64,000 nt of DNA from a virus. The translations under genes and the position numbers were made by a program. A model generated the notes under the pieces. That model was not told the DNA's origin. It ran no database searches and worked only from the letters and a program-made list of their open reading frames with translations. Positions 3,184 through 45,529 of this stretch are shown here, one piece after another (positions within the stretch are counted from its first letter, which is position 1; the number at the start of each line of letters is the position of its first letter). The DNA is taken from positions 32,001 through 96,000 of IMG/VR virus record IMGVR_UViG_3300027759_003534; one strand, given 5' to 3'.

Positions 3184-4329
3184 TTACCAAGCCCACAGTA
3201 TGATCATGTTGTCGTTGCCACGACCATTAAATTTAGTTTCTGTAGCTTTGATTTCACCAAATGCCTTGCGAGCCGCTGGTTTTCCACCGCCAGTAACTGC
3301 TTTGATTTGTTCAGCTGGTTTACGCAGTGTTTTTTGGACTGTAGCTAGTGTGTCAAATCCTGCAATAGCACTACCTTTAATTGTAAAGGTCCCAATGTGG
3401 CTATCTGCCATGACATGAATCAATCGACGTTTGGCCGTGTCATATAACCATGCTTCACTTGCATTTACTAATTTAGTAACTGGCTCTGATTTAAGACCAA
3501 GTTCTTCAAACTCTCGTAAAAACTTGAATTTGCGTGTGAGTTTTTCTGGGCTTACAGCTTTCTTGGCACGTGGTTTGCGTTCTACTTTCTTCAGTTGCAC
3601 ATAACTGCTGCAGTCATTGATCACTGTTTCGCAAAATTTGACACAATTACGAAGTTGTATTTTTGTAAGGTGACTGTAGCCTTCTACTAGGTCAGCATCC
3701 TCACCTGCCAACACTTCTGTAAACTCTGCTAGCCGTAGTTGCCAAACAGCTGATACGGTTCCTGTCATGTTGGGACTGATATTCATGCCACGCATGAGTT
3801 TGATTGGGCTAAAATCTGCACTCATCTTTGCGCCAGCTACTATAAAATCATCAAACATACCTTCAAGTTCGCCACAGCACTCTGATACTTTTTCACGCAG
3901 GTGATCTTGGATTGTGAGTCGGGCTACAGCCGTGTCGGCATCTACTTCACTTTGTTCGCGTTTCTTTTCTTGCTTGACTCGAAGCATCTGACTAATTTGC
4001 TCATCAACAATGCTCTGTTCGTGTTCGTTAAGCACAAGACCTAACAATGTCATTCGACATACCCATGCTGGTGTAAGACGAATCTGGCTGTCCGGAATAC
4101 CACGCATGGTCTTGGCATCTTTGGATCGAGTGTTGTGCTCTAAATAATGACACAGCATATCCTTGGCATCTTTTTTGCCATAGTGATAGTTGTACCACTG
4201 AAACGCATTAGCAAAACTGCTGATGCGATTTTCTTCAGTGGGTTGAAAGTTCCACTCAGGTTCGTGCCCTACATATTTGGTTTCAGCACCCTTGGGGTTT
4301 AGTCTTTTGATTTCGTTTGATTTAGCCAT
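3184..4329 (-). CDS. Hypothetical protein (~381 aa; start moved to MAKSNE)
   Basis: Long ORF. A sigma70 promoter at 4337-4365 overlaps the ORF-track start, so ATG 4329 is preferred. Confidence 0.75.
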   Translation of the reverse strand: MAKSNEIKRLNPKGAETKYVGHEPEWNFQPTEENRISSFANAFQWYNYHYGKKDAKDMLCHYLEHNTRSKDAKTMRGIPDSQIRLTPAWVCRMTLLGLVLNEHEQSIVDEQISQMLRVKQEKKREQSEVDADTAVARLTIQDHLREKVSECCGELEGMFDDFIVAGAKMSADFSPIKLMRGMNISPNMTGTVSAVWQLRLAEFTEVLAGEDADLVEGYSHLTKIQLRNCVKFCETVINDCSSYVQLKKVERKPRAKKAVSPEKLTRKFKFLREFEELGLKSEPVTKLVNASEAWLYDTAKRRLIHVMADSHIGTFTIKGSAIAGFDTLATVQKTLRKPAEQIKAVTGGGKPAARKAFGEIKATETKFNGRGNDNMIILWAW

Positions 4330-4336
4330 AGTGTTT

Positions 4337-4365
4337 ATTGTATAGTAAAGTTTGAGTAAGGTCAA
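4337..4365 (-). promoter_or_regulatory. sigma70-type promoter
   Basis: TTGACC-17 nt-TACAAT. Confidence 0.7.
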
Positions 4366-4613
4366 CCAAGCAGGTTGGCCAAGGTTATGTGTTGTTCTAA
4401 ATTGGTCAGCAGATCGGCTACTTGTTTTACCAGCTCACGATAGCGTGGTGTTTCTTTATGCAATCTACGACATTCTACGCTTTCCATGTCAGCAGCTACA
4501 ATGGCTTGATCCACTGCCCTGGTCATTTTGAGCAGGTCGCGGCGAGCTACCTTGTTTTTAACCTGGGCTATGTGCTTTTCAGCCCGATCTAGTCTTTGAA
4601 ATAACTCGTCCAT
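4362..4613 (-). CDS. Hypothetical helical protein (83 aa)
   Basis: ORF with its own near-consensus promoter. Confidence 0.7.
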   Translation of the reverse strand: MDELFQRLDRAEKHIAQVKNKVARRDLLKMTRAVDQAIVAADMESVECRRLHKETPRYRELVKQVADLLTNLEQHITLANLLG

Positions 4614-4619
4614 TTTGTA

Positions 4620-4648
4620 ATTATACTGGCTTTTGAATTTGTAGTCAA
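4620..4648 (-). promoter_or_regulatory. sigma70-type promoter
   Basis: TTGACT-17 nt-TATAAT, 6 nt before ATG 4613. Confidence 0.8.
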
Positions 4649-4657
4649 TCTAACCGC

Positions 4658-4663
4658 TAAATA
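4658..4663 (+). promoter_or_regulatory. Late promoter
   Basis: GCTAAATA immediately before ATG 4665/4671. Confidence 0.65.
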
Positions 4664-4664
4664 C

Positions 4665-6023
4665 ATGACTATGCCAAGACTTTCCATGTGGCGTCCTAAT
4701 AGGACGAATGATTATCAGTTTTTAGACCGCACAATCTCCGAACAATACACTGTTGGAGGGCTTGACCTCTATATACACAAATACCTCGGGCCACAGGGCG
4801 CAGGTACAGACAATGGCAACAATGATGCCACTATACCAAATTATAATTCGACCAATCCTTTGTTTATTGAGGATTTGTTGCTGTTAGAAAATCGTGATAG
4901 AGTGTATGCCCCTGATGTGTTTGTCATGCGTGGTGTGTATCGCACACAAGACGTAGATTTTGATCTAACACAATTTGGTTTGTTTTTAAACAACGATACC
5001 TTGTTTATTACCTTTCACTATAATGACATGATTGACACGTTTGGGCGCAAGCTCATGAGTGGTGATGTAATTGAAGTGCCAAATTTAGCAGACTACCATC
5101 CCTTGGACAATACCTTGGTCAAAAGCCTGCCCCGTTATTATGTGATCCAGGATGCCAACTTTGCATCAGAAGGATTCAGTGTTACTTGGTTGCCACACCT
5201 GTGGCGAGTCAAGGCTACTCCAATGGTCAATGCTCAAGAGTACAGCCAGATTATCAATCAACCGTTTATGCCGGAGAATATCTGGGACAATGGAAATTTT
5301 TATCCAGCTGGTACCATTGTCAACTATGGCAACACCTATTACCAGGCCTCACAAAATGTACCGGCAGGAACTGATATTACTGATACTGCCTATTGGACTG
5401 TAATTACCAATCCCAACACAGTGGGTGACAAACAAAGCACAAGGCCCAAAGATTTGGCCATCAACGATGCTATACTTACTCAGGCCTATCATGATGTGCC
5501 ACTGTCGGGCTATGACAATGTTAAATTTTATATCTTGCCCACTGGACCCAACGGTGAGCCAGGGCCGGCTGGTCTTACTGCTGATGACACATTCCCCACA
5601 GTAGACACTACTGAATCGGGCGATGGTATCACTCCCAAAGGATTTGGCTATGTTCAAGGTTACTTGACTGGGTCTACTCATGCTCCTAACGGCTTACCAG
5701 TCACACCCGGAGTGGCATTTCCGCCAAATCCAGTGTTGGGCAACTACTGTTTAAGACTAGATTATTTCCCTAATCGCCTGTTCCGTTACAACGGCCGGGC
5801 CTGGTTGGCCATCACAGACAATGTACGCACTGACCTTGACTATGCAACTGAGTCACTGACACAACGATCCAGTTTTGTAAACAATACCTACACAGTACCT
5901 ACCACAGACATTGGCAATATTCCAAGTCGTCAGAGTCTCAGTCAGATACTTGAAATACAACCCGACAACGGTGACCAAGGTGGCAATATTACACCACCTA
6001 ATCCAAGACCTCCAGGGAGATAA
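4665..6023 (+). CDS. gp14: Head-closure/neck protein (gp14-like) with an inserted CBM5/12-like module
   Basis: DLLLLENRDRVY, FDLTQFGLF, FITFHYNDM..FGRKLMSGDVIE motifs; adjacent to gp13- and gp15-like genes. Confidence 0.7.
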   Translation: MTMPRLSMWRPNRTNDYQFLDRTISEQYTVGGLDLYIHKYLGPQGAGTDNGNNDATIPNYNSTNPLFIEDLLLLENRDRVYAPDVFVMRGVYRTQDVDFDLTQFGLFLNNDTLFITFHYNDMIDTFGRKLMSGDVIEVPNLADYHPLDNTLVKSLPRYYVIQDANFASEGFSVTWLPHLWRVKATPMVNAQEYSQIINQPFMPENIWDNGNFYPAGTIVNYGNTYYQASQNVPAGTDITDTAYWTVITNPNTVGDKQSTRPKDLAINDAILTQAYHDVPLSGYDNVKFYILPTGPNGEPGPAGLTADDTFPTVDTTESGDGITPKGFGYVQGYLTGSTHAPNGLPVTPGVAFPPNPVLGNYCLRLDYFPNRLFRYNGRAWLAITDNVRTDLDYATESLTQRSSFVNNTYTVPTTDIGNIPSRQSLSQILEIQPDNGDQGGNITPPNPRPPGR

Positions 6024-34804: not shown

Positions 34805-34810
34805 TATTTA
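34805..34810 (-). promoter_or_regulatory. Late promoter
   Basis: GCTAAATA 5 nt before ATG 34799. Confidence 0.65.
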
Positions 34811-35548
34811 GCGGCTTGGGCAGTGATCGCCGTGCCAGCGGGCGTAACCATTCACAGCTACCAGTTGATCACAGTGCGGGCATAGCCGCTTTTCACGCTT
34901 CTTGCCCATGTTAGCTAGACTTCTTGCCAACTTTTCTTCTTCAGTTTGTTTACGGCCACGCAGTTTGTCTCCAATTTTTTTACGAGTGTTGTCTGATACT
35001 TCTGCTCCATAACGTGGGTTATTTTTTCCTGACTGTGCGGCTGATAATTTTGCTCGATGTTCTTCTGTTATAGGAGGTTTCGTTTTGCCAGTTGTGTTTG
35101 CCACCAATCTTGCATGTTGTTCTGGTGTCAGCGTATTACCTAGATTTTTTTGTCTAATTTTTTCTCTTGCTTCTGGTGTATGTGTTTTGCCCCACATTGG
35201 GTTTTTCTCCCCAAGGATTCTTTCACGTTGTAGTATTGCATATTCTTGTTTAATACTTTCATATACTCGTGCGGTAATTTTTGTAGCATAACGTTGTTGT
35301 CCTGATTTCTCTGCTCGCATCATCCTAAGTGCATTTAGCATTTTATGATGTTCTTGTCCTGTAGTCATTTTGACCAACAACCAATGGCATACAAAGTGTT
35401 CTCTAGCAGTTAGATTTACCAAGTTATCTGGCTCATCTCCACCACCTAAACTACGTGGTACTATGTGATGACTCTCTGTGTAAGTTTCTAGGACACGATT
35501 TTTGGCTCGATTTGTAATGTTTGCGTACCATTGTTTATATTTGTTCAT
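34808..35548 (-). mobile_element. Free-standing HNH homing endonuclease with NUMOD3-like repeats (start moved to MNKYK)
   Basis: ESHHIVPRSLGGGD..DNLVNLTAREHFVCH; NPMWGKTHT and NPRYG repeats; C-terminal CPHC. Confidence 0.85.
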
Positions 35549-35553
35549 ATGTT

Positions 35554-35602
35554 TATTTATGTTAGTAAGCTCCATGATAACATTTATAAACAAAAATGTC
35601 AA
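35554..35602 (-). promoter_or_regulatory. Tandem sigma70 (TTGACA-17-TGnTATCAT, 35574-35602) and late (ATAAATA, 35554-35560) promoters
   Basis: Both lie between the capsid terminator and ATG 35548. Confidence 0.65.
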
Positions 35603-35603
35603 C

Positions 35604-35627
35604 AAAAAAGCGCCTTTCGGCGCTTTT
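35604..35627 (-). terminator. Intrinsic terminator of the head operon
   Basis: AAAAGCGCC-GAAA-GGCGCTTTTTT. Confidence 0.9.
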
Positions 35628-35671
35628 CTGCTTCTTCCCATCCCTGAGAAAAATAAACAAACAATCTCTGA

Positions 35672-36868
35672 TTAAGAGAAAGACAAGTTTTGGACGGCAA
35701 TCTCCCCGACGTAGTCGGCAGCATTACCAAACGAACTTGCAGTATTTGTTAATTCTACGAAGCCATATCTCGTCATGAAACTTACGACTGGTTCGAATGT
35801 TGACGGATCCAATACCACGCCACTGCTCATCAACGGAATGTATGGGCAATAGAACGCAGCAGCATCAGCTTCGCTTGTACCCTTGTAGCCAACCAATACA
35901 CTAGCTGTATCACTAGCGTAAGAGTTTACAAACACACGCATTGCACCGTTCAATGTACCAACAAACTTAGTGTTTGTAGGAGCTTCAAATGTGCCTTCTG
36001 TTGTGCGGGCAAAAGCACTAGTTGTTGCACTTTGCAATACTGTCAAGCTAGCTGGGGAAACAACAGCCCAGTTACCAGCGCCACGACGTGTACGCTGAGC
36101 GATCAAGTTAGCAACGCGGTTGATCAACACTGCCAAAGCGGCATGCTCATCACCAACGAATGTTGCTGTACCAGATACAGTTGCTTGGTTGTATGTGTAC
36201 TCTGTAGCAGCCAATGTGCTCAAGGATAACAAGATCTCTTGATCAATCTCAGCTGTGATCTCTTGTGCAAGAGCAGCCATGATTTCAGCTTCTACGTCGA
36301 TACCGTGCATGGCTTGTGCATCTTGAGCAGATTCAAATGTCCAACGAGCTTGTAACTTGCGTGTCTTTGCTTCAACAGCTTGCTTCAAGATTTGTACGGA
36401 GATTTGCTTACCGCCTGTGCCTTCCATAACTGCTGTGTTGTTACCTGTGTAACCAGTAGCTGTTGTAGTAGCTTGTGGCACTGTAGAGTAAGCAGTAGCA
36501 ATTGTGAATGGGCTCAAAGCTTCTTGACCAGCTTGGACGCTAGTAGCGGCTGCTGAATTGTCTGTCAAACTCTGTGCATAGCGAACACGTAATGTGTGGA
36601 TTTGGCCTACTGGACCTGTCATTGGCTGTACGCCTACCAACTCGTTAGCAATAACTGTTGGCATAACACGTCGAATAACTGGCAGAATCACACGGTTTAA
36701 TGTGGCGATGTTACCAGAAACTGTAGAACCTGAACTTGCATTCTCACGCAAGTATTTTTTTGTGTTTTCGAGGATAACTGACATGGAAGTACGCTTAGAG
36801 CCGGACAAGCCTTCTAAGAGTGCATCTTTAGTTTCAGTCCAACGACCTTCTAATAATTCTTGTGACAT
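35672..36868 (-). CDS. gp23: Major capsid protein
   Basis: VIRRVMPTVIANELVGVQPMTGPVGQIHTLRVRY, VEAKTRKLQARWT, FYCPYIPL, FMTRYG. Confidence 0.97.
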   Translation of the reverse strand: MSQELLEGRWTETKDALLEGLSGSKRTSMSVILENTKKYLRENASSGSTVSGNIATLNRVILPVIRRVMPTVIANELVGVQPMTGPVGQIHTLRVRYAQSLTDNSAAATSVQAGQEALSPFTIATAYSTVPQATTTATGYTGNNTAVMEGTGGKQISVQILKQAVEAKTRKLQARWTFESAQDAQAMHGIDVEAEIMAALAQEITAEIDQEILLSLSTLAATEYTYNQATVSGTATFVGDEHAALAVLINRVANLIAQRTRRGAGNWAVVSPASLTVLQSATTSAFARTTEGTFEAPTNTKFVGTLNGAMRVFVNSYASDTASVLVGYKGTSEADAAAFYCPYIPLMSSGVVLDPSTFEPVVSFMTRYGFVELTNTASSFGNAADYVGEIAVQNLSFS

Positions 36869-41698: not shown

Positions 41699-43918
41699 CT
41701 AGCTGGCGTACTGCATTATTTTTGTACTGACGTCTAATTGATTTTTCATTACCGAAACCATTTCCTCTAGTTTTTCTAGTTGGGCGGCCATAAGACCTGT
41801 GCTCTCGCCACTGCCCAAGCCCATGCTTTGGGCTGCTGGACTGTTTAGCGGAACAATTGCTTCGGTACCGTGCATGGTTAAATTGGGACGATATCCGCCT
41901 GTTGGTCCACTTAATATAGCACCATTGGCTGCAGATACTTCTGCGTGAATATGTCCACCAGTACCGCCAGGACTTAGAGTAGCATATTCATCCTGAGCAT
42001 ATGATGCACCCATTTGCTGTAACATGCTAACAATACTAGCACCTTCTTCTCTAGATGGAGTTTTTCCTAAAGCAAAATCTAATGCCAGTCCCTTAACATG
42101 GTTACTTCCACCTTTTTTATCTTGATGGTATTGATCATTGAAACCAGAAAAATATGCAAACCCTGGAACACTTGCTTGAATTTGTTGGGCTAACTCAATT
42201 AGGTTTGTGCTAATCCCGCTGTCTCCGGCTTGAACATCACCTTTTTTAATTTTAAGGCCCATGCTTGCTAAATCGGCCTGGGTAGTTGGTACTACGGGTG
42301 CGGTTGCGCCGCCAGCTCCGCTAGCACCACGTTTAGGTGGTACTACACCAGGTCGACCTTGTTTTTCTAAATATTCCGATTCGTTATCAACCCGTTGTCC
42401 TTGTAGGAAATTTTTACCAGTGGTACTTACTACCCCCACTGCTTTTTCTAAACCGCGGGCAAGACTACTTTGGAATTTTTCCCCTGTGGTCATTTGTTTC
42501 CAGTTAGCTGCGTCTTGCTCTTCGGTATCTACATCTTGGCGGCCCATTTCTTTGTTAACCCATTTGATCATGTCTAACATAGTGTCAGTCATTTTTTTGG
42601 TAGCATAAGCGGCCTGTGGCATCAGTTTGATTGCCATCTTGCTAAATTCAATATTCATTTTTTCAAGATTTTGCTGGGCCTCAACCGTGGCCTTTGTTAG
42701 ATCGTCTGTTTTCTTAACTTGTGTAGCTTGTGTTGTTGCAGCTTTTTCGTAGGCACCTTCATTTTTGGCATTGATTGCATCCATCACACCGGCGGCTTTT
42801 AAATACACACCCGGAGCATCGCCTACTTGTCCTGCTGTTTCTAACTGTGCTTTACTATGGCGCTCCATAGCACCAACCAATTCATTCTGTGCTTGATCTT
42901 GATCAATCATGCCAGCTTTAAGTCGTGCCATAATGTCGCTTGCAGCACCACCAGTACTGCCCAGCAGTTTAATCGATGCATCTGTATCAGCTACGCCTGA
43001 TGATAGATCTCTGACTCCCTGTCCCATTTCTGCGTCAAACGACGACATGCGAGTTTGCAAGGTCATCATTGCTTTGGCGCCGCGAATTCGATCTTCGTCG
43101 CCACTTCGCATTGCTAATTCATAGTTGGCGCGGAATTTGCTTTCGCTTAAGGCAGCATCTTGTTGTTTTTGAATTGCGTCTCTGCTGAGACCGGTTACTT
43201 TGCTCAACAAGTCTAATTCCATTGCATACTGTTTAGATCCAGCAGTTAGCTGGTCTGTAGACATAGACTGTGCTTTGCCTAGTCTTGTTTGTTGTGTTAC
43301 AAAAGCAGCAGTTGTGGAAGAAATATCTTCGGCACTCATGCCTATCTTACGTAAGTCAGTATCTTGTTTTTGTGTTAGATTGCCAACTATTTGGCTGAAC
43401 TCTTCTGCGCCGTCGCCGGCTGTGCCGCTAAAACGTGCTAATGCTACAGAGTTTTGAGTAACAACTTTTTGAAATTGTTGTAAATTTAAACCAGCGGTAG
43501 TAAACTGACGAGATAAGCCTGTCATGCCGTCGGCAACAAGAGCTCCTGTTGCTGACATGGCGTTGAATGTTTTGGCTGTTGCGTCCAGTTGGTTAACTAC
43601 TAGTTTAGCGCCTTCAGCAACTGCCTTGGTTGCTGCTGACAGGGCTTCGCCAAATACCGGAACTGTTTTTGCCAAACCGCTAACAGCATTTGCAGCTACG
43701 TCAACTACTGTGTTCATGCTGCTAAGGCTAGTGTTTCCCTTAGTAATTTCGTTAACAAACCCACCCATGCCTTTGGCTATGTCAAGCGGTAGTCCTTTAG
43801 CTGTTTTCTTAAATGCATCAAGCCCTACAGTAGCATCTTTAGTAGCCGCAGTGATTCCTTGCATTGCATTGCGGTAGTCTTCTGCCATCTGCTGTAGTTC
43901 TTGATTTTCTAAAGCCAT
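41699..43918 (-). CDS. Tape-measure-like protein with a C-terminal M15/Hedgehog-type zinc peptidase motif
   Basis: Long Ala/Gln-rich helical region; NHVKGLALDF (H-x6-D) and GGHIHAE; C-terminal LTMHGTEAIVPL. Confidence 0.7.
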   Translation of the reverse strand: MALENQELQQMAEDYRNAMQGITAATKDATVGLDAFKKTAKGLPLDIAKGMGGFVNEITKGNTSLSSMNTVVDVAANAVSGLAKTVPVFGEALSAATKAVAEGAKLVVNQLDATAKTFNAMSATGALVADGMTGLSRQFTTAGLNLQQFQKVVTQNSVALARFSGTAGDGAEEFSQIVGNLTQKQDTDLRKIGMSAEDISSTTAAFVTQQTRLGKAQSMSTDQLTAGSKQYAMELDLLSKVTGLSRDAIQKQQDAALSESKFRANYELAMRSGDEDRIRGAKAMMTLQTRMSSFDAEMGQGVRDLSSGVADTDASIKLLGSTGGAASDIMARLKAGMIDQDQAQNELVGAMERHSKAQLETAGQVGDAPGVYLKAAGVMDAINAKNEGAYEKAATTQATQVKKTDDLTKATVEAQQNLEKMNIEFSKMAIKLMPQAAYATKKMTDTMLDMIKWVNKEMGRQDVDTEEQDAANWKQMTTGEKFQSSLARGLEKAVGVVSTTGKNFLQGQRVDNESEYLEKQGRPGVVPPKRGASGAGGATAPVVPTTQADLASMGLKIKKGDVQAGDSGISTNLIELAQQIQASVPGFAYFSGFNDQYHQDKKGGSNHVKGLALDFALGKTPSREEGASIVSMLQQMGASYAQDEYATLSPGGTGGHIHAEVSAANGAILSGPTGGYRPNLTMHGTEAIVPLNSPAAQSMGLGSGESTGLMAAQLEKLEEMVSVMKNQLDVSTKIMQYAS

Positions 43919-43962: not shown

Positions 43963-44805
43963 ATGACCCAAACTAACAACCCTTTACGTCGATATTTTCG
44001 ACAACCAGTGATTCATGTGCGTTTGCCCAGTGGCGGAAAATACTACCCCGCAGGCGCACTGGAACTGCCTCCCAACGGCGAAATACCAATTTTGCCAATG
44101 ACTGCTATTGACGAAATTACTAGTAGAACACCCGATGCATTGTTTAACGGGTCAGCTGTTATAGATATCATTGGAAGTTGTGTGCCGGCCGTTCGAGATC
44201 CGTGGCAAATGCCCATGGTTGACTTTAATACCTTGCTGGTGTCTGTACGATTGGCCAGCTACGGGCACGAAATGGAAATCGGTAGTACCTGCCCAAAATG
44301 CGGCCATATTCATGCACTAACTATAGACTTGCGAACTGTGCTTGATAATCTTGGCAGTCCCAATTACGACGAGTCTGTTAGCGCTGGCGATTTGACAGTG
44401 TACTTTACACCGTTAACCTATCGTCAGGTCAATGCCGTTAGCAGGACCAACTTTGAAGATCAAAAACTTGTACAGGCTGTGAATAGTGCTGAATTATCTG
44501 AAGAAGAAAAGTTGATAAAATTGGGCGACGCTTTTAGAAAAATAACCGAACTTACTATTCAATCAATAGCCGAGTCAATTGCAGTAATTAAAACCGCAGA
44601 TGCTATGGTCACCGATAAACCTAGCATATTAGAGTTTTTGCAAAATTGCCCAAAGCATGTATTTGATCAAATACGCGATCATACTGTTAAACTTCGAGAA
44701 GCAACTGATCTAACTCCAGTTAGTGTGACCTGTGAGGAATGTTCCGAACCATACAAACAGTCGTTTACACTAGATATGTCTAATTTTTTCGGGAACGCCT
44801 CCTAG
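43963..44805 (+). CDS. gp26: Baseplate hub assembly/tail chaperone protein (gp26-like; start moved to MTQTNN)
   Basis: VRLPSGGKYY, ILPMTAIDE, DFNTLLVSVRLASYG, CPKC, CEEC, ends ..SNFF. Confidence 0.8.
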   Translation: MTQTNNPLRRYFRQPVIHVRLPSGGKYYPAGALELPPNGEIPILPMTAIDEITSRTPDALFNGSAVIDIIGSCVPAVRDPWQMPMVDFNTLLVSVRLASYGHEMEIGSTCPKCGHIHALTIDLRTVLDNLGSPNYDESVSAGDLTVYFTPLTYRQVNAVSRTNFEDQKLVQAVNSAELSEEEKLIKLGDAFRKITELTIQSIAESIAVIKTADAMVTDKPSILEFLQNCPKHVFDQIRDHTVKLREATDLTPVSVTCEECSEPYKQSFTLDMSNFFGNAS

Positions 44806-45020
44806 TACTAGACTCTGATAGCATCTCCAACATGGTTGATGCTATGGAAAAAGAAACACGCGACATTCGGCTTGATGTTTTAAAATTGTGTTGGTATATG
44901 AGAGGCGGTGTAACATATGAAGAAGCCATGCAGATGAGTCAGCAAGAGCGTGGCATTATCAACGATATTGTCAAAGACAATTACGAAACAACTAAGAAAT
45001 CCGGAATGCCGCACTTTTAA
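44784..45020 (+). CDS. gp51/GT-like ORF, probably a -1 frameshift extension of the gp26-like gene (in-frame ATG at 44832)
   Basis: The -1 frame opens exactly at T-TTT-TTC (44784-44790), right after TAA 44781-44783, and runs to 45020. Confidence 0.7.
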   Translation, partial: FFRERLLVLDSDSISNMVDAMEKETRDIRLDVLKLCWYMRGGVTYEEAMQMSQQERGIINDIVKDNYETTKKSGMPHF

Positions 45021-45529
45021 TGTTAAAATTAGACACAGTACAATACGAAATAGAACGCTGGATAGAAACGTTTGTAGAGGTTCCGCACCCAGCCCTAGGA
45101 GGCTGGGCTCCGTGTCCGTATGCTAGAAAAGCCAGACTAGACAGAGACTTCGAGGTTAGACTAGGGTTAGCACCCCTGCACGACTTGATTAAAATTAGTA
45201 AAAACGGATTGGGCGGCAAGAGTGTTGTTGTCATTGTCTACGATCCTAAACATTTTACATATGAGTCTTTTAGTAAGGATTTAGAAACTGCCAATAAAGA
45301 ATTTTTATTACCAAATAATTTATTGGTTTTAGAGGATCACCCGGGTGATCCAGAAATTGTCAACGGTGTTAGTATGAATCAAGGAACCTACGCACTAGCA
45401 TTAGTGCAGAGTCTCAGCGACTTAAATGAAAAAGCCCAACTTGTTGCCAAGAAGGGCTTTTATGACACATGGCCAGAAGAGTACTTAACCGCCTTGTTTA
45501 GACATCGTAAAGATCCGCGACAGATTTAA
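45020..45529 (+). CDS. DUF1415-like protein
   Basis: WIETFVEV.....GWAPCPYARKA motif; LEDHP. Confidence 0.55.
   Translation: MLKLDTVQYEIERWIETFVEVPHPALGGWAPCPYARKARLDRDFEVRLGLAPLHDLIKISKNGLGGKSVVVIVYDPKHFTYESFSKDLETANKEFLLPNNLLVLEDHPGDPEIVNGVSMNQGTYALALVQSLSDLNEKAQLVAKKGFYDTWPEEYLTALFRHRKDPRQI

Follow-up and report, generated by a model that had tools for sequence, protein, structure and literature searches.

The gp26-like baseplate-hub gene in a 64,000-nucleotide stretch of DNA from a giant lake phage (positions 32,001 to 96,000 of IMG/VR record IMGVR_UViG_3300027759_003534, hereafter the window) is in all likelihood decoded in two ways, as a short protein of 280 amino acids and, via a -1 shift of the reading frame at the heptamer TTTTTTC, as a long protein of 352 amino acids. 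The evidence is drawn from the sequences of this gene and its homologs and consists of the slippery signal itself, its conservation, a switch of the coding frame at the heptamer, homologs in which both parts are fused in frame, and complementary gene copy numbers. The contig from which the window is taken comprises 182,566 bp and was judged 49% complete, and therefore belongs to a phage of jumbo size. It encodes T4-type head, portal and late sigma factor genes as well as gp5-like and gp6-like genes. A blastn search with the window locus did not return any match from a cultured phage.

The gp26-like gene occupies positions 43963..44805 on the plus strand. Its 0-frame product matches the Pfam family T4_baseplate (PF12322) with an E value of 3.8e-16 and a score of 59.9 bits (gathering cut-off 24.5), residues 54-276 being aligned with model positions 35-218, and is assigned to phrog_150 ('baseplate hub') in PHROGs. 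PF12322 is likewise matched by all 61 homologs in our alignment of the family (A4), and two CxxC pairs are conserved, C110, C113, C257 and C260 being invariant. Translation is predicted to start at ATG 43963 (N-terminus MTQTNNPLRRYFRQP), in agreement with the homologous N-termini; these disfavor the alternative start codon ATG 43939. At its 3' end the gene reads ATG TCT AAT TTT TTC GGG AAC GCC TCC TAG. This segment contains the heptamer T_TTT_TTC (44784..44790, plus strand), which can be read directly in the phase X_XXY_YYZ and would place tRNA-Phe in both the P and the A site. The 0-frame stop codon TAG (44803..44805, plus strand) follows four codons past the heptamer. A TAA at 44781-44783 closes the -1 frame; beyond it, 78 codons are open from 44784 to a second TAA at 45018-45020, and the translation of this frame from the heptamer onwards begins FFRERLLVLDSDSISNMVDAM. 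These features and the resulting lengths of about 352 versus 280 amino acids had been described in a first-pass annotation of the same DNA, and all of them hold in the sequence. In the window's own contig, the six-frame PF12322 match stops exactly at 44790.

From this point the -1 frame extension (44790..45020, plus strand) adds 76 further codons and the stop codon TAA. It is predicted to form a conserved helical domain with the motif pattern RxRLL...CWYMRGG...ER...TTKKSG, and the trans-frame product would be join(43963..44790, 44790..45020), that is 276 plus 76, or 352 amino acids. Neither Pfam nor PHROGs provided a family for the extension; its likening to tail-chaperone T segments in the first-pass annotation was not borne out by any test. 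The form annotated by gene callers is an open reading frame (ORF) of 62 amino acids (44832..45020, plus strand) that starts at the first ATG of the -1 frame and omits the 16 conserved residues with which the extension domain begins. The window sequence does not contain a Shine-Dalgarno-like sequence ahead of ATG 44832.

In the mechanism put forward here, most ribosomes would read AAU UUU UUC and terminate four codons further on, thus producing the 280-residue protein, which is built like T4 gp26. On a fraction of the ribosomes, the tRNA-Phe molecules on UUU in the P site and on UUC in the A site would slip back by one base onto UUU UUU, a tandem slip (UUU_UUC to U_UUU_UU) that permits full re-pairing. 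The slipped ribosomes would pass the 0-frame stop in the -1 frame and add the conserved 76-residue helical domain. The long product of 352 residues would then consist of a T4_baseplate body and a C-terminal tail, which is the architecture of T4 gp51. One gene could thereby supply short and long hub-assembly protein in a fixed ratio, a task for which T4 and some relatives would use two adjacent paralogs. That the slippage takes place on the ribosome and that the phage needs both products is what we infer from the evidence laid out below.

The comparison of related genes, proposed in the first-pass annotation as a check on the heptamer and on the residues upstream of ATG 44832, spoke for the frameshift on both counts. 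In a tblastn search with the -1 peptide, Agrobacterium phage Atu_ph07 and Sinorhizobium phage Phosso match from the first residue and therefore also over the part upstream of ATG 44832; the baseplate-hub genes of both phages end in CAT TTT TTC G. A first scan of IMG/VR yielded 60 loci via the extension peptide, one of the six patterns used spanning FFRERLLV with degenerate codons, and a second scan yielded 80 more distant loci via the motif W[FY]MRG, which is 36 codons away from the heptamer. Seven more cultured jumbo phages (RaK2, 121Q, GAP32, PA5oct, SCTP-2, Vibrio 2.275.O and Xoo-sp13) were reached via the gp26-like protein. The set with frameshift architecture, made up of IMG/VR loci and nine cultured jumbo phages, comprises 144 loci with 126 distinct sequences. 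The heptamer is TTTTTTC in 125 of these 126 and TTTTTTT in the remaining one, and the next base is G in 124, although these raw counts exaggerate independence because the loci are phylogenetically related. All 75 frameshift-type loci of one set and all seven isolates checked have the heptamer in phase. A sequencing artefact in the T run was considered and is ruled out by the 126 distinct sequences, which stem from many projects and platforms.

Several further properties set the heptamer apart from ordinary coding sequence. The codon that precedes it is of eight kinds (AAT, GAT, AGT, CAT, ACT, CGT, TAT and GCT), stands for seven amino acids and always ends in T. Elsewhere in these genes, Phe-Phe pairs are encoded by TTT TTT (13), TTC TTT (12), TTC TTC (8) and TTT TTC (7). 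Entropy amounts to 0-0.07 bits at the seven positions of the heptamer and the G after it, versus 1.3-1.9 bits at the flanking third codon positions. The first T of the heptamer codes for nothing in either frame and is invariant all the same, which is exactly what a slippery site predicts. Judged from these alignments, the conservation of the heptamer is far beyond chance.

The coding pattern changes frame at the same place. Counted from the heptamer, the -1 ORF extends over 77-79 codons in the 63 closest loci and over 72-80 codons in seven cultured jumbo phages, and an invariant Trp is found exactly 36 codons past the heptamer start in 117 of the 126 sequences. An alignment of 32 extension peptides (A1) does not contain a gap from column 1 onwards and shows FFR, WYMR, E, R and K to be invariant; conservation thus extends upstream of the position of ATG 44832, up to the very first codon. 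Mean codon-position entropy decreases in the order third, first, second position both in the 0 frame upstream of the heptamer (1.58/1.20/0.81 bits) and in the -1 frame downstream of it (1.63/1.33/1.04 bits for codons 3-15, which precede most ATGs); the heptamer is also the point at which the third-position periodicity of the 0 frame gives way to that of the -1 frame. The 0-frame tail past the heptamer varies in sequence and comprises 1-10 codons; its stop codon is kept in all 126 sequences.

Without any recoding, the downstream ORF could be a separate small gene that is translated from ATG 44832 or through termination and reinitiation, the heptamer then being a by-product of the overlap. ATG 44832 could indeed also give rise to an independent 62-residue peptide in the window phage, an ATG is present in the -1 frame of all sequences but one, and annotators do call separate small ORFs. 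In Atu_ph07 and Phosso (ATGA) as well as in 121Q (TAATG), the ATG overlaps the 0-frame stop, such that coupled initiation is possible in these three phages. The position of the first ATG, on the other hand, is not conserved and may be codon 3, 4, 8, 14, 16, 20, 21, 32, 34, 38 or 39. The ATG at codon 38, which is the first one in 22 of the 126 sequences, encodes the Met of WYMRGG, and a start at this point would cost half of the domain. Upstream of the heptamer, a stop codon usually interrupts the -1 frame within 0-13 codons, and a start codon is not available there. As the ATG varies and residue conservation sets in at the heptamer, ahead of the ATGs, independent initiation fails to explain the pattern. 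A separate gene would furthermore leave the invariance of the coding-neutral first T, the existence of in-frame fusions and the complementarity between one-gene and two-gene genomes (see below) unaccounted for, and we consider it very improbable.

Homologs in which the predicted long product is encoded in a single frame do in fact exist. An exhaustive profile search with the extension retrieved 448 proteins, mostly small ORFs cut at an ATG chosen by the gene caller. In about 20 clusters of proteins with 319-351 residues, however, the extension forms the in-frame C-terminus behind a T4_baseplate body. An earlier search for longer homologs had not returned fused forms, which reflects its limited sensitivity. 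The N-terminal T4_baseplate domain scored above the gathering threshold in all five fused proteins tested. Their junction, D-x-x-x-x-F-[RK]-x-[KRQ]-[IL], aligns gap-free with LDMSNFFRERLL as predicted for the window, and the predicted 352-residue product as a whole aligns with the fused homologs without a gap. The DNA at the junction is non-slippery in five fusion contigs (e.g. TAT TTT CGG and CAA TTT AGA).

Confident structure models were obtained with AlphaFold2 for one fused protein (predicted local distance difference test, pLDDT, 85.9; predicted template modeling score, pTM, 0.79), in which the extension forms four helices, and for the 0-frame protein of the window (pLDDT 91.2, pTM 0.85). 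A Foldseek search of BFVD with the fused-homolog model gave 59 matches at E <= 1e-3, among them baseplate hub proteins of the phages Aeromonas phage 25 (gp26), CP220, SP-15 and AF3. Foldseek did not find a PDB structure for either model at E <= 1e-3, and a sequence match in PDB was not found either. A wide search with VIA-align returned generic helical matches and one weak TAC lead.

The two architectures correspond to those of two classical T4 proteins. T4 gp26 matches T4_baseplate over residues 1-206 (E 8.8e-64), and T4 gp51 (249 residues) does so with its residues 1-201 (E 3.9e-52). Beyond these, gp51 has a C-terminal tail of about 48 residues, which bears the name Gp51_C (PF28602) in the precomputed annotation of newer Pfam releases. 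Because both match T4_baseplate, gp26 and gp51 are paralogs. T4 gp26 is tail-less and ends at the conserved FF just as the 0-frame product of the window does. In its terminal sequence KEFFELL the two Phe residues are retained in a non-slippery context (GAG TTC TTT GAG), and no extension follows since gene 25 comes next. The tail of T4 gp51 begins at F-K past the second Cys pair, and the equivalent position in the window is F-R. It is shorter than the extension in the window phage (about 48 versus 76 residues).

When the extension was compared with an alignment of gp51 proteins, hhalign reported 34.5% (E 4e-4) and 14% (E 2e-3); the matches are colinear and have the invariant E-R aligned. Comparisons of the extension or of the fused profile with single T4 sequences gave 1.9-38% and are uninformative because even T4 gp26, a known member, reached just 38%. 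In the ESM Atlas, the nearest Pfam-bearing cluster to the extension carries Gp51_C on 33% of its members (score 0.92, 182 shared features); among the best 120 of 415 homologs of the 62-residue ORF, a recorded Pfam match was not present. On these grounds, homology between the extension and the gp51 tail appears likely but is unproven. The first-pass annotation had called the downstream ORF gp51-like. The 62-residue ORF would match just the C-terminal tail and not gp51 as a whole, and this link, with hhalign values of 14-35% and the lead from the ESM Atlas, is weak.

T4 possesses separate, adjacent and divergently transcribed genes 26 and 51 (located at 3803-5229 in the T4 locus, L063), whereas the window phage has one gene and the heptamer. 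The start codon of T4 gene 25 lies in the -1 frame with respect to gene 26 and overlaps the gene 26 stop codon as TAATG, and an internal-start product, 26', is also made from T4 gene 26.

This difference extends to gene copy numbers, which were obtained by six-frame searches with PF12322 and hence rest on the sensitivity of one Pfam model; the limits of the model are evident from SCTP-2, in which it missed the T4_baseplate gene. Two T4_baseplate genes, 26 and 51, are present in T4. A single one was found in RaK2, 121Q, PA5oct, Atu_ph07, GAP32, Vibrio 2.275.O, Xoo-sp13 and Phosso, in three IMG/VR genomes that are 95-100% complete, in two that are 60-69% complete and in the window's contig, which gives a total of 14 heptamer-bearing genomes with one such gene. 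All five in-frame-fusion contigs, in contrast, contain two adjacent T4_baseplate genes, a long one (333-350 residues) with the extension and a short one (272-318 residues) without it. In the IMG/VR loci L152, L153, L154 and L155, the extension-less gene is situated right beside the long in-frame gene; the short paralogs of L154 and L155 are devoid of both CxxC pairs. On the functional side, nothing speaks more strongly for a need of both forms, with the heptamer as the source of the long one, than the complementarity between one-gene and two-gene genomes, and one gene with a -1 shift very probably stands in for the gp26/gp51 pair. The proposal of the first-pass annotation that gp26 and gp51 are linked by a programmed -1 frameshift is accordingly favored by four lines of sequence evidence, namely the heptamer, the colinear fusions, the paralogy of gp51 and the copy numbers.

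The same genomes bear on the idea that the long product alone is functional, either because the shift is very efficient or because the short protein is an inert by-product, so that frameshifting would merely amount to a 'correction'. It is true that, in the fused lineages, the long form is functional as one polypeptide. Every fused lineage examined nevertheless keeps an adjacent short paralog, T4 keeps both genes 26 and 51, and in the frameshift-type genes the 0-frame stop has been retained throughout, 1-10 codons past the heptamer. A function of the long form only must therefore be viewed as extremely improbable.

In a quick tree (midpoint-rooted, with long branches, and with the Shimodaira-Hasegawa-like approximate likelihood ratio test, SH-aLRT, as the only support measure) the long and short genes nest at several places among the frameshift-type genes, which hints that the frameshift form may have split into two genes more than once; we do not lean on this tree-based result. 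The tree groups T4 gp26 with gp51 on long branches. We offer it as a tentative idea, which may well prove wrong, that gp26/gp51 is the T4-superfamily counterpart of lambda G/GT and that the frameshifted gene is the older state in the large group of jumbo and lake phages concerned, resolved repeatedly into two genes, with the T4 arrangement being one outcome of this process or a parallel one.

Besides the relatedness of the loci, the dependence of the copy numbers on one model and the start codons discussed above, the search for stimulatory structures weighs against two-way decoding by the ribosome. RNAfold gave -16.6 kcal/mol for the 70 nucleotides after the heptamer of the window, which is not significant (z = -1.6), and a family-wide consensus structure downstream of the heptamer was not obtained with RNAalifold when all clades were taken together. 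A local hairpin with the arms AUAGCAUC and GAUGCUAU (44814..44848, plus strand; arms 44818-44825 and 44838-44845) begins 24 nucleotides past the heptamer in the window and carries AUG 44832 in its loop; its role is doubtful. In favor of such decoding, one clade (L044-L062) has a 10-bp hairpin, GUAAGAUCU...AGAUCUUAC, located 3 nucleotides past the heptamer (11-46 nucleotides after the heptamer start), for which 92.9% of cells are paired versus 34-49% with slid partners and in which two pairs exhibit compensatory changes. In other clades (loci L026, L027, L031 and L039), GCCUCCU pairs with a distal AGGAGGC about 50 nucleotides downstream. Stimulators therefore seem to be lineage-specific. The lambda G/GT frameshift proceeds at a few per cent and manages without stimulatory elements. 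An efficiency figure for U_UUU_UUC was not found in PMC4066793.

The lack of an RNA stimulator conserved throughout the family is also expected if it is RNA polymerase that slips. In that case one U would be added on the run of six T, and a minority of the mRNAs would encode the fusion in frame. The product would be identical (N-F-F-R...), which likewise counts against decoding by the ribosome, and the invariance of the T run, its first T included, would be equally expected. The lone variant TTTTTTT, however, does not lengthen further, and the covarying hairpin 3 nucleotides downstream of the heptamer in one clade is a typical stimulator of ribosomal shifts. The T4-type late sigma factor encoded in the window suggests the use of the host RNA polymerase, and for bacterial RNA polymerase six U are short for efficient slippage, runs of 8-9 being usual. 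Moreover, TTTTTTG of phage P2 acts as a translational shift site. Transcriptional slippage is thus improbable as the source of the long product, and a -1 shift of the ribosome is preferred.

A -1 frameshift in tail-assembly genes, as established for gpG/gpGT of lambda, is conserved across long-tailed phages (Levin 1993; Xu 2004, 2013, 2014, reviewed in PMC5009743). It is considered a hallmark of these phages, with T4 being cited as an exception (PMC5009743). As in lambda G/GT, the gene studied here is a tail-assembly gene with a -1 heptamer close to its 3' end, which would give rise to a short and a C-terminally extended product, and here, too, the shift site and the arrangement of the frames are conserved despite low protein similarity. 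The sequence of the gene thus displays the pattern of two predicted products with a common N-terminus, the longer one arising via a -1 shift near the 3' end. The position typical of G/GT, just upstream of the tape measure gene and between tube and tape measure, is not found here, as the neighbor in the window is divergent. A Pfam search for the tube protein T4 gp19 was negative in the window's half-complete contig. Christie and co-workers are said to have described in 2002 that the tail chaperone pair E/E+E' of the myovirus P2 is produced by a -1 shift at TTTTTTG. P2 resembles the window phage in its contractile tail, in a T-run slippery site read by tRNA-Phe and in a short -1 extension. It differs in that its proteins are much smaller and unrelated in sequence and in that the tape measure gene T follows the P2 gene immediately. 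A non-viral parallel is E. coli dnaX (tau/gamma), which shares the -1 shift at a homopolymeric heptamer, two products in a set ratio and a nearby stop codon. The shift in dnaX truncates the protein whereas that in the window would extend it, and the strong Shine-Dalgarno-like and hairpin stimulators of dnaX have no evident equivalent in the window.

In T4, both gp26 and gp51 count as chaperones in the assembly of the hub, which takes in the tape measure protein gp29. The phage cannot do without gp51, a protein with no assigned function that does not occur in virions; the presence of gp26 in virions is uncertain (PMC3004832). T4 gene 51 is located three genes upstream of gene 29. By analogy, the two forms may have a G/GT-type chaperone role on the tape-measure/hub complex, an analogy that fits both the logic of the gene and the literature on T4.

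The first-pass annotation had placed the gp26-like gene back-to-back with a tape-measure-like gene. An adjoining, divergent gene for a protein of 739 residues (41699..43918, minus strand) is indeed present; its identity as a tape measure is a lead only. The protein is assigned to phrog_14121 as a virion structural protein. Its nearest ESM Atlas clusters are tape measure families (scores 0.91-0.93), and similarity to a tape measure protein was flagged by the annotators of the RaK2 homolog. BLASTP against T4 gp29 and Pfam searches with its two halves did not give anything significant. Of 143 frameshift-type loci, at least 96 have a detectable homolog of the neighbor upstream in divergent orientation, Atu_ph07 and Vibrio 2.275.O not being among them. 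The homolog from phage CBB, CBB_251, is described as an abundant virion protein with 29 peptides, and the passage of that paper on virion mass spectrometry, which runs from CBB_247 to CBB_251, does not list the gp26-like CBB_250 or CBB_249 (PMC5259590). Elsewhere in the text of the same paper, 'CBB_250' denotes an 894-residue gp5-like protein, whereas CBB_250 in GenBank (L157) is the 285-residue gp26-like gene (PMC5259590); this mismatch probably is a numbering slip in the paper. ESM Atlas neighbors of the 739-residue protein also include clusters of VanY (D-Ala-D-Ala carboxypeptidase), and a peptidase-like motif, SNHVKGLALDF, is present near residue 605 without confirmation by Pfam.

Two further observations concern the surroundings of the gene. 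The stop codon of the extension, TAA 45018-45020, overlaps the ATG of a downstream ORF (45020-45529, plus strand) as TAATG (45018-45022). This ORF encodes 169 residues (phrog_28122, weak match to DUF6875), and its translation could be coupled to the minority of ribosomes that would have shifted into the frame of the extension. Elsewhere in the window, a homing endonuclease gene (34808-35641, minus strand; phrog_655, E 5.5e-53) adjoins the major head protein gene (35672-36868).

A published report of recoding in gp26, gp51, baseplate-hub genes or the jumbo phages concerned was not found in a search that left most subscription journals outside its reach. None of the ten cultured-phage records examined has a joined coding sequence (CDS) annotated; in its place, the records give either a 'hypothetical protein' of its own or no entry. 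For annotation this means that a 'hypothetical protein' of 40-70 residues, or a gap, after 'baseplate hub' in such genomes should be turned into a joined CDS.

Phage T4 has been regarded as managing without the tail-assembly frameshift, and a deeply conserved frameshift signal now turns out to lie within the T4-type hub-assembly family itself. Its carriers include well-studied jumbo phages in culture such as RaK2, 121Q/PBECO4, GAP32, the CBB group, PA5oct and Atu_ph07. As far as can be judged from sequence comparison, this would be the familiar frameshift of tail assembly in another protein family, and it would tie two classical T4 genes together, such that gp26 and gp51 become the short and the long form of one protein. 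Natural controls are available in the lineages that combine one gene with the heptamer and in those that have two genes but lack it. How T4-type tails deal with the tape measure when no G/GT pair is present thus becomes directly testable in tractable phages of E. coli, Klebsiella and Pseudomonas.

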